NCBI GenBank assembly: GCA_965287045.1
Contig: OZ336878.1
Location: forward strand, 69,874,001 to 69,938,000
Direction: 5' to 3'
DNA length: 64,000 bases
Source: Carcharhinus amblyrhynchos
Taxonomy: Eukaryota
Each line of letters starts with the position of its first letter. Position 1 is the first letter of the stretch. The notes below the pieces were generated by a model. That model did not search any database. It was not told the origin of the DNA and was given only the letters and a program-made list of their open reading frames with translations. Positions 18,830 through 60,542 of this stretch are shown piece by piece. The position numbers and the translations under genes were made by a program.

Positions 18830-19225
18830 TATTCATTTGTGGGACATGGGCGTTGCTGGCTGGCCAACACTTATTGCCCTCCCCAGTTGCCTGGGGCAAG
18901 TTGAAAGTCATGGAGCCGCATGTTGGCCAGACCAGGTAAGGATGGCAGATTTCCTTCCCTAAAGGACATTGTCAGGAAAACCCATCTGATTCACCAATCA
19001 ATAGTGGTTTTGTGGTCATCAGTAGATAATTAATTCCAGTTTTTTTTTATTGAATTCAATTTCCACCATCCCTGTGGCAGGATTTGAATCTATTATCTAT
19101 TATCAAATAAATTGGTTGGACTAAAACCTGGTGTTGTCAGACTTTTTACTGCAGGATTTGAACCCCAGAACATTAGCTGAGTTTCTGGCTTAATATTTTA
19201 GTGCCACTAAGCTGTTGCCTCCCCA
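18830..19225 (-). mobile_element. tRNA-derived SINE sharing its 3' end with the antisense LINE family (older copy at ~18555-18780)
   Basis: Tail ggacatgggcgttgctggctggccaacacttattgccc as in the LINE copies; body ggtaaggatggcagatttccttccctaaaggacatt; minus-strand B-box-like ggttcaaatcc. Confidence 0.7.
19089..19150 (+). mobile_element. PLE terminus micro-insertion
   Basis: Nearly identical to 58810-58859; flanked by 12-bp duplication gcaggatttgaa (19077-19088 and 19151-19162). Confidence 0.8.
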
Positions 19226-39079: not shown

Positions 39080-39383
39080 GTATTATGTTTCACTTCAATA
39101 GCTAGTGCATTTTTATTAAAATGATGAACATGCTTGTTGTAGTTACATTGTATCCTATTGTTTCATTTGTTGTGATACGTTAGTGTTTCTGATTCTGTGT
39201 TCAATGCTAAAAGTGCAGACCTTCCTGCATGACACTGTTGAGTAGCATAATTTTTAACGCAAAAGACTGGCAAAGTATTTACTGGATGAAAGAGACTTGA
39301 GAGGGTAACCAAAACCTGCTTGAGATCTCTGAAGGGGAGAGAAATGGAGAACTTTTTAGGAGGATCGCTGCTGCTAAAGGTGC

Positions 39384-39586
39384 CAGTGAGAAGTCTGTCA
39401 ACGCCAGGTTAAAGACCAACTGCTTTATTTGGTATCACAAGCTTTTGGAGTGCTGCTCCTTCGTGACTCTTCTGATGAAGGAACAGCGCTGTGAAAGCTT
39501 GCGATACCAAATAAATCTTTTGGACTTAACCTGATGTTGAGTGACTTGATGTGCCCACCCCAGTCCAACGCTGGCATCTCCACATC
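39384..39586. mobile_element. Miniature inverted pair of PLE termini with hammerhead core
   Basis: Diverged ~80-bp inverted arms; CTGATGA (39472) and GAAA (39493); tail gtgcccaccccagtccaacgctggcatctccacat; flanking direct repeat aaaggtgccagtg (39376 and 39587). Confidence 0.82.
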
Positions 39587-40217
39587 AAAGGTGCCAGTGT
39601 GGAGTGAAGACTGGGGGTTGTGTGCTCAAATTGCTGGGAACAGAATTTGAAGGGAATATGGGTCTGGAGGAAAGTGCAGGAGTGGGATGAAGAGGAGGTA
39701 AAACTTAAAAATATGAAGTTTTTGAGCTCAGAACAGCAAGCCAGTGTAGTTCAGTGAGGGCTACGGTGAAAGTAAAGCAGGACTCAGTTTTGGCTAATTT
39801 GGAATTAGTGAAGGAAGGGAGACTAGCAAGTTGATTTGCAGTTTGTGACAGCAAGTTTTGCACAACTATCAGGATAAAGCTAATGACAATAACTGTTTGA
39901 GGTACATGATATAGCAATTTTAGGGGGCAAATCTGAGTTAAATGTGAATATTTGGTTTATCTGGATTGTATCATCAACATAACCAAAACAGCAATTTGCT
40001 ATCTGTCTTGACAATGACTTGGAGTTGCACCTTGAACTTTGAATGCCACAAAGTTGCTGCATTCACGCAACAGATAAATGAAATTCACCATGGATATTTC
40101 AAGTGATTTAAGTACCTTTTTTTAATGATTAATTTCTGCTAAACTGCCTGTAGCAATTAAGTTATGGCATTGCTCATTTATTCCTTCAGGTTTTGAATGT
40201 TTCAGATGTTCATATAT

Positions 40218-41478: not shown

Positions 41479-41679
41479 GTAAGTTACAACTCTTGACATT
41501 GCTTCATGTAAAGACTGTGTATGAAAAGGCCATGAGCTTCCAAACTAAATAATGCAGGTGTATACTTAATGTATTGCTCTGTTTTTCACATTGGTCATAC
41601 AGATGAACAAAAAAGATCCTAAAGATTGGCTTAGTTTAAGGTTTTTAATTGCATCTGAATATGACATTCTTCTCCACAG

Positions 41680-41787
41680 GTTTGTAATAGAGTTATGTGA
41701 ACCAATCCAAGTCAGACAACTTGACATTGCAAACTTTGAGTTATTTTCCTCTACACCAAAGGACTTTCTAGTTTCTATAAGTGACAG
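41680..41787 (+). CDS. SUCO: SUCO coding exon (~exon 10), SUN domain
   Basis: [35 protein letters not shown](R); ccacag / ag|gtatgt. Confidence 0.97.
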
Positions 41788-42080
41788 GTATGTTATATTT
41801 TAAGCTGGAAATAATGTGGTAAAGGTATGTAAGCTACATAATAATCAGTGCAACACAGCTGTTGGTGATCAAGATGGTATATATCAGTTTAACTGCTGGA
41901 TTAGTAAAATTCAACATGTGTCCATTATATACCAGCATATAACATTCAACTGATCTGTTAATGCCCACTTTACCCCTTCACAGAAATTGAAGTTTACTGT
42001 TACTTTTTTACATATAGCTGTGGTTAATACTTAATGGTTTTTGTACTTCAATTTGTTTTTGTGTCTATGTTCACGTGCAG

Positions 42081-42186
42081 GTATCCCACCAATAAATGGG
42101 TTAAACTAGGGAAATTCCACGCCCTGGATGAGAGAACTGTGCAAAGCTTTCCTTTAGATGAGCAAATGTATGCCAAGTATGTCAAG
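42081..42186 (+). CDS. SUCO: SUCO coding exon (~exon 11), SUN domain
   Basis: [35 protein letters not shown]; tgcag / aag|gtaaga. Confidence 0.97.
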
Positions 42187-43756
42187 GTAAGAACTACAAA
42201 TGTCAAAATGGAGGGGAAAATGTGAATAGGAAGTCTGCTCTGGCTTCAGTAATTATAATGTTTGGTAGTAAATACTTTGTTTCATGAACTTCTGACAGTA
42301 TTGTGACCTGCATTATCTGCCAGATCTGCAAATGGTGTACGCGTTGTTAAGTTTTGCAGTAATGTGTACTCAATGTATGACCCTGAGTGTTGCATGTAAA
42401 TATTTGACTTTGGTTTATTCACTGCTATATATGCAACAAGACTTGTGCACCCAGTGGGACCCCAGTACAAGCATACTTGTGACTGGCTTTTGACTAAGAC
42501 AGGCTTAAAAAGAAGAATCTTGATGGCATTTATGTTTCTCCACGTTCCCAACTATGTTAAAGACAAGTCACAGTTCTGAAAATAGCCAATGAAGATTGAT
42601 TTAAGGTTGTATACTGAATCTACCAAGCATAATGCATAGAAGATTATACACAAAACATTTTCACTGGAGGCTGTTGAAGCTAAAATTTCTAATGTTCAAT
42701 GACCTATTTAAAAGTGCACTTTGAACTGCAGTCATACCACCAGAGGGCGCTCAACAGCAACACATCACCTTAAAAGCATTTACGTTTTCAGACAGCAATT
42801 CTATATCAATCAAAACAACAGCAGTTTTCCCCAAGATAGCAAACAATTGTTTTCAAAGCTACCCACAAAACTTCAAATTTTACTTAGACCAATCAGTAGG
42901 TAATATGATTCATGGCTGGATTGAAGATTCTTGTCTTGTGATTTTCTTCTTTTGATAAGACATAGAATATTTTGTAATTGCTCTACTGTGATTGCATTTT
43001 GATGGCAGCAATCACGAATCAACTCTAATTTTTTTATAGTGCCAGCTTTTGAGCACTTATGATGGCCTTTGCTTAACTAAAAGACATCCTTTTTATAAGA
43101 TTAGATGAGTACTTTGCTTGCTTTATTTTTCACCTCTGTGAAATGGGGCACTCCAGTATCTCTCACTGATTTCCTTGTCAACTCAGCAAGACTCCCTCGG
43201 TGAAAGTACAGGAGGGTGGAGTGTTAGTTGATTTGGATTTGTAGTCTGCTGGACTGGAGTCTCTGTTGCGGATGTATTGGCTAAAGAACTATTTTCCAGC
43301 ACAAAGACCTCTTTTATAACTGAAAGCTAATACTTTCAAGCACTATGCTGTCGCTTGAGAAATGGCTGGAGATCTTTTTGAAATTACTGAAACATAGTGC
43401 TGATTTAATATCGATTGGAAATTTGTATAATGCAGCGTATACAAGGCTTAAGATTTCTGTAAAGCCTTAAAATCAGTAAAATTAAGGTTTCACAAATATT
43501 CTATACTACTGTTTCTGAAGTTTTCAGTAATTTCACTGATTTTAGCTTTCTAGATTTCTAAGTATCTGGATAGAGATTTTTCTGCTTGTCTTGATATTTC
43601 TTTCAGTCCATCTTTAGAGCACAATATTTAAAGGAAACCATGGGGTGGGAGGGGGGATTTGAGAATAATCGTACTTTTTGAGCTTGTAGCATGTAGTAAT
43701 CTATCTTGACTGTTACTACTCTTACTGACATCTTTTATCCCTTTCTCTTGCTTCAG

Positions 43757-56021: not shown

Positions 56022-56779
56022 GTGAGTAGTTATAAGCATTTTAAACACTTAGTGCACCAAAGTAGAACATAGTTAAATTTAATTCTTGAGGTTTGTTTTT
56101 ATTGCCTCAAGTATTTAGTTGACATATAGCTTTTTAAATAGGGATTGGATGTGATCAAGTAAGTGACCATACACTTTGAACAAATTTTGTTTTAAAGATC
56201 TGAGGTGGATGGAAGTTAAATAACAGCTTAAATTGTAGCACTAATTATACTGGGTTCAACAACTTGAATGTCATGCCACCCAAACACTGTGCTCATTAAT
56301 CATAAGGAAAGTTAGTAGCCACTTTTTCAAATAGAAGCTTAATTTGTGCAGTTTAGTAAACAGACGAGTAACAGTGAACAATGGGGCTCTTGAGAGCGTA
56401 TGAAAAGAGTAATTTTGGCAGTTTTTACCTGTGGCATAAATTCCAGTGATGGGAGAGGCGGACGTAAATGAGAGAAACAAAAACCAAGATTGCTTGAAGA
56501 AAGATTGAATATTCTTGGGTATCATATAATTTTTTTTGAATTAGCTTAGATCAAATTTTGTCAGAGCAGTGTACCCTTGTCATTTATAACCTGCTTTTTT
56601 ATTCCTTATCCTGATGCTGGTTTTTCTAATGATTTAACTTAAATCTTCCACAGCTCCTTATTTACCCCCCTGCGAATGTGCAGAAAACACTTTAATGCTA
56701 TTGCTGAAGACGACCCGATTGTGAAGTGAAATGTAGTTCATTTATGGGATATGGGTTTTGCTGGTTAGGCCAGCATTTC

Positions 56780-57088
56780 ATACAATCATTGTGCAGGAGG
56801 AGGCCATTCAGCCCATTGAGTCTGCACCAACTCTGAGCATCATGCCCAGGCCCACCCTTGTGTCCTATCCCATTATAATGGCTAATCCATTCAGCCCACG
56901 CACACTTGGACACTGAGGGGCAACTTAGCATGGCCAATCCCCCAAATCCTCACATCTTTAGACTGTGGGAAGAAACCCACATAGACGTGAGAATAATGTT
57001 CAAACTCCACACAAACAATCATCCAAGGACAGAGTTGAACCCAGGTCCTTGGTGCTGTAAGGCAGCAATGCTTGCCACTGTGCTGCCC
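56780..57088 (-). mobile_element. HE1-type SINE nested in a LINE 3' end
   Basis: Reverse complement of the 22079 family; LINE sequence on both sides. Confidence 0.85.
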
Positions 57089-57645
57089 ATCCCTGATTGC
57101 CCGTAAGAAGATGGTGGTAAGCCTTCTTGAACTTTTGAATCCCTGTAGTGTAGGTATGCCCACAGTGCTGTTAGGGGGATTCCAAGATATTGACTTGGCG
57201 ACAGTGAAGGAATGGTAATATATTTCCAGTCTGGATGGTGAGTGGCTTGGAGGACAACCAAGTACTGATGTTCCCATATGCCTGCTGCATTATCCTTCTA
57301 GGGTTTTGAAGGTGCTGCCTATGGAGCCTTGGTGAGTTCCTGCAGTCAATCTTGCAGATGGTGATACATGTTGCTACCACTGTTTTGTCAGTGGTGGTGT
57401 GAGTGAATATTTCTGGATGGGTAGCAATCAAATGGACTGATTTGATTTGAATGATGTCCAGCTTAAGTGTTGTTGAAGCTGCACTCATAAGCAAGTGAAC
57501 AGTATTCCATCACACTCCTGACTTGTGCCTTGTAGATGGTGGCAGACTTTGGAGAGTCAGGAGGTGAGTTAATCACTGCAAGACTCCCAGCCTCTGATGT
57601 GCTCTGGTAGCCACAGCATTTAGTAGGCTAGTCCAGTTCCATTTC
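57085..57645 (-). mobile_element. LINE 3' fragment (3' tip at ~56745-56780, separated by a SINE)
   Basis: Same family motifs (acagtgaaggaatgg, ttccatcacactcctgacttgtgccttgtagatgg). Confidence 0.8.
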
Positions 57646-57836
57646 CTCTGCACTATTAATATGGCAGCAAATGTTCTTGTTTTTAATTTAAGTAAGCAGA
57701 GCTCTTATTTTAGCAGTAGACTGCATTAAAAGCCAATAGCATGGTGAGTTAGTATATTCTTACACTGAGATGGAAATTACAGCTCTACTGACCAAAGAAT
57801 TGAATATTAGAGGCATTGTTTGACTGTCTTTATAGG

Positions 57837-58894
57837 CAGTAAAAAGTCTGACAACACCAGGTTTTAGTCCAACCGATTTATTTGATAGTAAACGCACAAG
57901 CTTTTGAGGTTTCCCTCTTTGTCAGGTGAATGGAGAGTTCTGGCCTCAGACAGAGCATATAAAGCACAGACAGTTTAGAGATTACTGATTAGAAAGCGAA
58001 TCTTTACACCTAACCTGCTGTTCAAGTCCTAAAGTGGCTGACAATGTGAGTGGAAGGAGCACTGATCACAGGTTAAAGAGATGTGTAGTGTCTCCAGACA
58101 GCCCAGTGAGTGAGGTTTTGCAAACCCAGGCAAGTCACGGGGGTTACAGATAGCGTGACATGAACCCAAGATCCCTGTTGAGACCGTCCTCGTGTGTGCG
58201 GAACTTGGCTATCAGTCTCTGCGCTGTCGTGTGTCGTGAAGGCCGCCTTGGAGAACGCTTACCCGAAGGTCAGAGGCTGAATGCCCGTGACCACTGAAGT
58301 GTTTGCCAACAGGAAGGGAACAGTCTTGCCTGGAGATTGTCGAGCAATCATGCTCGACAATCTCCAGGCAAGACTGTTCCCTTCCTGTTGGCAAACACTT
58401 CAGTGGTCACGGGCATTCAGCCTCTGACCTTCGGGTAAGCGTTCTCCAAGGCGGCCTTCACGACACACGACAGCGCAGAGACTGATAGCCAAGTTCCGCA
58501 CACACGAGGACGGTCTCAACAGGGATCTTGGGTTCATGTCACGCTATCTGTAACCCCCGTGACTTGCCTGGGTTTGCAAAACCTCACTCACTGGGCTGTC
58601 TGGAGACACTACACATCTCTTTAACCAGTGATCAGTGCTCCTTCCACTCACATTGTCAGCCACTTTAGGACTTGAACAGCAGGTTAGGTGTAAAGATTCG
58701 CTTTCTAATCAGTAATCTCTAAACTGTCTGTGCTTTATATGCTCTGTCTGAGGCCAGAACTCTCCATTCACCTGACAAAGAGGGAAACCTCAAAAGCTTG
58801 TGCGTTTACTATCAAATAAATCGGTTGGACTAAAACCTGGTGTTGTCAGACTTTTTACTGTGTTTACCCCAGTCCAACGCCGGCACATCCACAT
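57837..58894. mobile_element. Penelope-like element, 5'-truncated head-to-head palindromic insertion
   Basis: Arms 57837-58346 and 58351-58860 are reverse complements; they encode a GIY-YIG-type C-terminus (STISRQDCSLPVGKHFSGHGHSASDLRVSVLQGG / LIAKFRTHEDGLNRDLGFMSRYL*); 34-nt tail on one side; TSD tgtctt(t)atagg. Confidence 0.88.
58769..58802 (+). ncRNA. Degenerate minimal hammerhead ribozyme motif in PLE terminus (mirror copy 57895-57928 on - strand)
   Basis: cac-CTGACAA-a-gagg-gaaa-cctc-AAAA-gct-t-gtg; layout matches CUGANGA/stem II/GAAA/stem I with two G>A core changes. Confidence 0.65.
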
Positions 58895-59118
58895 GTCTTA
58901 TAGGCCCCAGGGATGGGCAAGTGTGGCAAATGTAAATTTTGCACTGTATGGTGGGCACCCTACTGAGGTTTGAGCCATTTTGTTAGTATTGTATTGACTC
59001 TGCACATGGATCTCTCAACACCGGATTATCCTGAACTGTTAGATGCCAAAAAATATTGTTCGTTGCAACAGTTAATGAATTATCTGAAACTTAATTGATG
59101 CTCTGTCTTTGTCTTTAG

Positions 59119-60390
59119 GCCAGACTTGGTTGTTGATCGTTCCATAACTGGGGAAGATGGTAAACCAGAGCAAGAGTCTTCTGATCCAAGTACTCACAAA
59201 GAGAACCTCATTGTGCAGCTGGTACAAGATGAGGATGAGGAATTAGTGAATCGGCAGTCCACTGTCACTCTTCTAAAACCTGAAGATGATGACGATGATT
59301 ATATTAGAGGCAGTTGGTTTGAAACTGAAACACAGACGTACTGCAGTGAGCTGCCTGGTATTTCTTGTATTTCTAATTTCCAAGAGTATATTTATAAATC
59401 CTGCTTCCTCATTGTGGCCCTCCGAAGGCAGCGCAGCCAAACACTCCTAGTTAATGAAAAAGTTCAACCAGTTCCTGACATCCACCACCTTTTAACTGGG
59501 CAGAAGGAAACTGTTTTGATCAATGAGACAAAGGAAGTGATTGAGGATGAATTGGACAGCCTGTCTGCTGATAAAGTGACGAAAGTTAGCAGTGAAAGTC
59601 AGTCTAGTACTGATTTGCCTGATAGTTTAACCAATCAGACTGACACTATTGAATTGGAGCCCAGCCATCCTCCACCTGCTTCCCATTCTCCTGAAGTCAG
59701 TACATCTGATACAAAATATGATGTGAAATGTACTGCCGTTCTTCACAGTTCTGATGATATTGTCACTGACACACTGTCTGACCAGATTCATCTTCGACCA
59801 GAGCTTACTGTACCCATTCTGGAACAAAGTACAGAAACTAAATTGGACACCCCACAGAAGGAAATAACTGAAGCTCCAGAGGAGACTTTGCTAATATTAG
59901 AAACTGAAGCTGCTAACGAGACCAGCTTGGGTGTTTTACCAAATGGGTCTATGAACGAAAACCAAGAAACTGCTCAAATACCAATCACGCCGACAGTGCC
60001 CATACAGCCAGCTGATAGTATAGATGAGCATCTAGCAACTGAGATTCAGAATGAAACTACTGGTGGGAAAAGGACCTTGGTAGAAACGGAAGTAGCTTTG
60101 CTGCCTTCAGGTTCAGATATTTCTGTCTCATCAGCAGCAGAGACAAAAGATGAAGATCAAGCTGCAGAAGACATCCTCCTGCCTGTTCCATCCTCAAATG
60201 GGCTAAATAGAACAGTTACTGATTTCTATGCAGAATTGCACAATGTTACTGATCTGGGATATACTAATGGGAATCAAGTACATGGATCCAATCAAAAGGA
60301 GTCTGTATTTATGCGGCTCAACAACCGTATCAAGGCATTAGAAATGAACATGTCCCTGAGTAGCCGGTATCTAGAAGAACTGAGCCAACG
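59119..60390 (+). CDS. SUCO: SUCO large coding exon (~exon 18, 1272 nt)
   Basis: Matches the 425-aa ORF; IVQLVQ, STVTLL, WFETETQ.YCSEL, DFYAEL and HGSNQKESVFMRLNNRIKALEMNMSLSSRYLEELSQR; tctttag / cg|gtgtgt. Confidence 0.97.
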
Positions 60391-60542
60391 GTGTGTACAA
60401 TAGCCTGGAGTGGTTTCTGCACCTTTTTAAACATTTGCTTGAGACACAAAAATGTGTTTTAATCATTAAGCAACGTATATTTTAATGTTTTGTAGAGAAA
60501 AAATGTCACTGAAACCTGTACTTTTGTGGTGTTGCTGGTGAG

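Follow-up and report, generated by a model that had tools for sequence, protein, structure and literature searches.

Architecture of the insertion

In the window (the whole 64,000-nucleotide stretch of Carcharhinus amblyrhynchos DNA analysed here), an insertion built as a tight palindrome sits in an intron of a SUN-domain gene, presumably SUCO-like, before a long exon (Table 1). Sad1_UNC matches were found in the frames at 41570-41800 and 42028-42222 (two of the 48 frames scanned, from 81 listed), and a Pfam search of the two ORF pieces and the long exon gave nothing meaningful. The region 34341-62750 holds many SINE-like repeat copies and LINE-like fragments (for example at 56775-57090 and 57100-57650); the SINE-like repeat, as we take it, resembles shark HE1-type SINEs.

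Checked base by base, 509 of the 510 positions in the two arms flanking the spacer are complementary, and an inverted repeat of 510 bp as near-perfect as this is not a product of chance. The sole mismatch pairs 58070 with 58627: the right arm has A, and the left arm keeps the family base, T, which makes up at least 99.4% of family depth. The original prediction had described the arms as identical in their lesions; the ribozyme changes and the frame break are indeed mirrored, but this one difference had been missed, and the element reaches 57837 and 58894, beyond the predicted span of 57895..58802. The spacer has no match to family sequence upstream (a loose end occurs before 58352 in the run contigs). 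The central 80 nt fold perfectly as a DNA hairpin closed by a 4-nt loop, and none of 200 shuffles folds as well. Thirteen Rfam matches, each to a microRNA-precursor model and under the gathering score, fall on the hairpin centre; we rejected them as a by-product of the palindrome. The insertion is bounded by a target duplication of 12-13 bp, the two copies of which (TGTCTTTATAGGC and TGTCTTATAGGC) are one T apart, confirming the predicted indel; it sits in a T run, and the left copy was read from the window sequence only. If transcribed within the intron, 57837-58860 would form a 510-bp double-stranded RNA from either strand, 225 nt before the next exon, and such RNA is a likely substrate for editing or for small-RNA production.

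Table 1. Coordinates of the insertion and its surroundings in the window
Feature	Position	Strand	Remarks
Left target-site duplication copy TGTCTTTATAGGC	57825..57837	+	From sequence alone, not run data; last C common to arm
Left arm: inverted 5'-truncated Penelope-like copy without 3' tail	57837..58346	-	
Left-arm hammerhead motif	57893..57930	-	Same two core changes (57920, 57905)
Spacer ATCA, 4 nt	58347..58350	.	6 nt if the A/T pair 58346/58351 is junction filler
Right arm: ORF end of element (to 58553) and 3' repeat region	58351..58860	+	
Site of 13-nt, frame-shifting deletion relative to family	58480..58481	+	Between short GCAGA repeats; mirror at 58216-58217
Arm-specific difference, the only one found	58627..58627	+	A in right arm
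Minimal type I hammerhead motif	58767..58804	+	Core 58772-58778; stem II GAGG-GAAA-CCTC; palindromic AAGCTT
One-sided 34-nt tail, outside palindrome	58861..58894	+	625-714 loose ends behind 58894 in X4, X1
Right target-site duplication copy TGTCTTATAGGC	58894..58905	+	Identical letters in S1 and S2 contigs
Next host exon, open frame, SUN-domain gene	59120..60391	+	

An ordinary Penelope-like insertion

With its two 5'-truncated copies, one-sided tail and target duplication, the insertion has the usual head-to-head form of Penelope-like retroelements. Among the matches listed, a 44-aa piece of the ORF matches the C-terminal parts of all 15 proteins at 74-93% identity, the best named matches come from sharks, and one of the 15 (P0012) carries RVT_1 (E 5e-9). 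Just upstream of the matched piece the listed relatives have VVYLIRC...WYIG, which we take to be GIY-YIG; Pfam gave no GIY-YIG match. Published marks of Penelope-like elements are an inverted 5'-truncated copy, a one-sided tail of 30-40 bp and a short target duplication (PMC8557442, PMC3846280), and all are present here: the adjacent inverted copy, a mark of the endonuclease-bearing members, a 34-nt tail at one end only, and the 12-13-bp duplication. The same head-to-head layout and short duplication, along with a one-sided tail, a hammerhead in the repeat end and an ORF end linked to reverse transcriptase in relatives, are described for Pen2a_Av of Adineta vaga (PMC3846280), in a general scheme (PMC8557442) and for Poseidon of Anolis (PMC11167929), from which the shark insertion differs in that only the last ~550 nt of the element survive, the reverse transcriptase not among them, and in its symmetric junction with a 4-nt loop. 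The Anolis enzyme is described as cutting and extending both strands, and as initiating at two sites, one at either end of the tail (PMC11167929). Given these published marks and this biochemistry, the architecture is ordinary and the arms can be identical from birth.

Of 15 joints listed for other copies in the family (58475-58859), 7 connect opposite strands at unequal truncation points (37-335 nt apart); judged from these contigs, head-to-head insertions appear to be common in the family and often asymmetric. All seven are asymmetric, unlike the joint studied here, and symmetric ones cannot show in such contigs. Pieces of the element ORF are also contained in three Mustelus asterias gene models (P0002, P0009 and P0015, a PYRIN protein, FAM210B and USP8), through either exonisation or annotation error. 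A 20-nt family motif occurred at no viral, four genome and four metagenome loci and was set aside as chance, as BLAST gave only 20-27-nt matches in seven of the eight and listed none for the other (L007).

Comparison with the family

Contigs of four of 24 listed public runs, two of the four labelled as other organisms, were compared with 58347-59300 at 85% likeness; the summed arm depth was ~1e5 times the flank depth, an order of magnitude only and not a copy number. In the 37 arm rows listed, with 19 further rows unlisted, nine sites carry a different letter at a share of at least 80% in each of the four runs (58393, 58505, 58543, 58594, 58609, 58627, 58702, 58777 and 58792); C>T at 58351, possibly junction filler, was left out of the counts. 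Eight of the nine are common to both arms, and here the family majority has the other letter at 80-99.98% of depth in every run; 58627 belongs to the right arm only. At the ribozyme bases 58777 and 58792 the majority is G (80-92% of depth). The frame from 58351 ends in QRRD* (stop 58483-58485) and continues as LIAKF...MSRYL* in another frame, just where a break had been predicted (~58483); because loose ends at 58475-58480 in all four runs carry 13 extra letters at 58480, the break is a deletion between short repeats. With G at both ribozyme bases and the 13 additional letters in the family majority, the lesions are derived; a consensus carrying these bases and this frame, which would have refuted the original interpretation, was not found. 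All the lesions originally listed are present, but six further shared changes relative to the family majority had been overlooked. The copy's GKHF, its QRRD end and its E>K change occur in none of the 15 related proteins, a set in which gene callers favour intact frames. Four of the shared changes are towards G/C, three towards A/T and one is neutral, too few to read as GC bias.

How rare the copy's alleles are bears on the idea that a ribozyme-dead master founded a widespread non-autonomous subfamily, which we consider very improbable. Its support lies in the 8-13% of X1 depth that is non-G at each of three CpG sites and in the shared alleles at 58505, 58543 and 58609, which hold 1-6% of family depth; those shares, however, match recurrent CpG decay. 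The non-majority share in the four runs is only 0.14-0.43% at 58594 (G in the copy) and 0.02-0.09% at 58702 (T), no commoner than the right-arm-only allele at 58627 (0.18-0.54%), and the longer form at the deletion occurs in the loose ends of all four runs. The widespread version of the dead template originally suggested is therefore disfavoured, leaving that of a one-off decayed template as a possibility. Many copies sharing the diagnostic lesions were not seen in the contigs of the four runs, which drop rare variants, so that a handful of copies, or tens with rare alleles, could hide, and a small source subfamily among them. The near-private alleles show no excess in S1 and S2 over the other two runs. 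Sampled-word shares were 0.89-0.94 for S1 and 0.84 for S2, with only 7.7% of the words covering the arm's rare alleles, too few to tell whether S2 carries them.

The hammerhead motif

The core reads CTGACAA, with A at 58777, and AAAA (58792-58795), with A at 58792, each A following a C and each mirrored in the left arm, just as predicted; we take these positions to be G8 and G12 of the hammerhead core, giving G8>A and G12>A. The motif has the features of a minimal hammerhead, namely the core, a 4-bp stem II and a palindromic loop III, with G as the family majority at both core sites, and the cut would fall after 58799. It fits the minimal hammerheads of Penelope-like elements, of the type described in PMC4209133. 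Rfam gave no hammerhead match at E up to 5, and RNA folding of 58740-58860 recovered stem II with a stability no greater than that of shuffles (z 0.03). At 58803 the copy has C where A holds 70-81% of family depth, a change that would add a mismatch in stem I.

The original emphasis on these lesions as inactivating is not supported, since each of the two bases is a CpG hot spot and RNA with a dead ribozyme is reported still to insert in vitro (PMC11167929). Multiplying the two non-G shares gives a chance of both core changes together of 0.9-2.4% of family depth across the four runs; two CpG changes in the ribozyme core are ordinary CpG decay and call for no special explanation. Selection for ribozyme loss was likewise rejected, both bases being such hot spots.

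Age of the insertion

The changes at 58393, 58777 and 58792 are all CG>CA, and the non-G shares at these sites in X1 are 8%, 10% and 13%; three CpG sites that the copy has kept are decayed in 17-19% of X1 depth, a figure that leans high because rows below 10% are unlisted. The copy has lost 3 of 32 CpG bases (9%, CI 2-25%), against 8-19% for the family at the six listed CpG sites in X1. It looks family-average in CpG decay, and hence of average age, which we count in favour of ageing in place. Because allele shares are alike in all four runs, two of them from other labelled organisms, most of the family is old.

The flanks carry further information. In both S1 and S2 a contig begins within the tail, at 58866, and extends across the right junction; S1 has no differences from 58866-59300, and S2 differs from the window at 58993, 59023 and 59061 in 214 intron bases, two of these differences being shared by run X19 (organism G). 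Three such differences are high for one shark species, and the two samples could come from different populations or species; S1 may also be the window's own source, leaving S2 alone as independent. With exposure counted, the arms would receive no more than one event with a probability of 0.08 for the intron only and 0.22 for the whole flank; with the target-duplication indel included, the probability of at most one of five events in the arms is 0.03 for the intron only and 0.13 with the exon part. This flank test gives a weak hint that the insertion aged in place, and the presence of the right junction on two haplotypes favours ageing in place with arm-to-arm copying.

Probable arm-to-arm copying

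The arms differ from each other at one site, and both differ from the family majority at eight sites and by a 13-nt deletion. A palindrome under concerted evolution must have arms that resemble each other more than they do outside relatives, but such resemblance is not sufficient to show it. Had 5-9 changes arisen in place without copying, the probability of at most one difference would be 5e-4 to 3e-7, and independent ageing without copying is excluded at P 5e-4 or less. We therefore hypothesize that an ordinary head-to-head Penelope-like insertion has aged in place while its arms were kept identical by mutual copying, a reading that we hold to be probable. Arm-to-arm conversion, one of the two options originally proposed, is thus favoured on one arm difference against eight shared substitutions and a deletion, with the reservation that the arms may be born identical and that a one-off decayed template is possible.

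From published biochemistry, the element's enzyme would nick both target strands 12-13 bp apart, and reverse transcription would be primed at two start sites, the tail end on the right and an internal site on the left, or else one cDNA would fold back; either route would leave the arms alike at birth. Later changes (three CpG decays, two near-private transversions and the deletion) would each arise in a single arm. With a loop of just 4 nt, a strand could fold into a hairpin or cruciform that pairs arm with arm, and mismatch repair or a template switch during replication could then copy each change to the other arm or erase it, 58627 being presumably the newest change, still unequal between the arms. 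Short spacers are reported to favour arm homogenisation in yeast (PMC8604942). At a mutation rate of 7e-10 per site per generation, borrowed from the epaulette shark (PMC10587355), the balance would require ~1000 copying events per mutation per site, or ~7e-7 per site per generation, and the conversion rate quoted for human Y palindromes (2.2e-4) is far above this.

Several observations weigh against this reading. The three shared alleles at 58505, 58543 and 58609 may be inherited subfamily marks, leaving five substitutions and the deletion; source lineages of the family carry CpG-decayed states, which are the majority at 58404, 58419 and 58749; and tight palindromes in mouse transgenes are reported mostly to gain asymmetric central deletions (PMC8701086), of which the shark palindrome has none.

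A different and less probable history is the recent mobilisation in trans of one decayed genomic copy, or of a very small subfamily, whose RNA, already bearing the deletion and a dead ribozyme, furnished both arms, with no later copying; one mutation would have occurred since, an age of ~0.1% divergence (CI 0.002-0.55%). Inverted 5'-truncated copies with palindromic junctions are a normal product, read as self-priming, and in rotifers repeat ends suffice for mobilisation in trans (PMC3846280), while in vitro insertion is not lowered by ribozyme mutations, and the enzyme can extend both strands (PMC11167929). There is also room for a source, as non-majority depth in X1 at 58594 and 58702 amounts to ~41 and ~63 single-copy depths, and an older palindrome in the window bears no sign of copying. 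Such a history would nevertheless require recent activity of a mostly old-looking family and a template that was itself average in decay and frame-broken; in addition, the junction lies on two haplotypes three SNPs apart, the target-duplication copies differ, the E>K change or QRRD end is found in none of the 15 related proteins (for which gene callers favour intact frames), and the window holds no source copy.

We give very little credence to a third account, in which assembly or polishing merged two somewhat different arms into one sequence. Such structures are known to trouble assemblies (PMC8557442), and among the contigs listed none spans the arms or the centre. Against this, the one-sided tail, the target duplication and the unique flanks are all undamaged, one difference between the arms persists, and the S1 contig agrees with 58866-59300 throughout; polishing with reads from so huge a family would, moreover, be expected to push the arms towards majority alleles rather than to double rare ones.

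Comparison with known systems and implications

Both the element and the process are known. Y palindromes are very large and have long spacers, and the shark case is an intronic 1-kb palindrome. The primate Y palindromes are alike in that arm divergence lies far below outside divergence (0.02-0.03% against 1.44% there; 0.2% arm to arm against ~1-2% from outside relatives in the shark), but that comparison used orthologous arms in two species (PMC3403216). In yeast, template switching likewise makes arms identical across a short spacer and copies multi-base changes symmetrically; the yeast arms are ~7-16 bp (PMC8604942), whereas those of the shark are 510 bp and retroelement-born, with copying deduced rather than traced on a tree. 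The Penelope-like literature leaves arm identity after ageing undiscussed in the portions available (PMC3846280, PMC8557442, PMC11167929), and a literature search, with most subscription journals and supplements outside its coverage, found no paper on arm homogenisation in Penelope-born palindromes.

If arm-to-arm copying is real, this tight palindrome of 1 kb has survived ~17-25 million generations with its centre intact (6-9 changes across 510 bp, taking the rate of 7e-10 per generation from another shark), and thousands of such insertions could measure the rate, tract length and base bias of vertebrate hairpin repair. If recent mobilisation is the true history, copies that are decayed and have a dead ribozyme are mobilised in vivo, in agreement with what was found in vitro; a single locus does not by itself decide between the two. 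We propose only tentatively that shark genomes hold many near-spacerless, retroelement-born palindromes that last for millions of generations and evolve in concert as their arms overwrite each other. Under such concerted evolution, arm length and loop symmetry would govern homogenisation, ages of these insertions taken from arm-to-arm divergence would mislead, introns would retain perfect double-stranded RNA hairpins, and a family of order 1e5 copies would serve as a natural assay, across the whole genome, of how palindromes are repaired in a vertebrate germ line.

A second palindrome in the window

A second, older head-to-head Penelope-like palindrome, of a related but different subfamily, occupies 39376-39599. 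It too has a one-sided tail, and its 13-bp target duplication (AAAGGTGCCAGTG) is perfect, with 5 bases common to the left arm end. The arms, short at ~80 bp, surround an asymmetric centre and are 22% apart: over 77 aligned positions there are 17 mismatches and 2 gaps. The same ribozyme CpG has become CAAAA in one arm and TGAAA in the other, by independent decay on opposite strands. Because these arms differ so strongly, homogenisation is not general. This palindrome may never have folded well, or its arms may come from two templates; the perfect duplication beside such different arms may point to two templates at birth. At 19077-19162, a 55-nt 3' fragment of the same subfamily (52/54 identical) ends at the tail-less site, with a 12-bp duplication (GCAGGATTTGAA) on its flanks and a short TATTATC repeat at its 5' junction.
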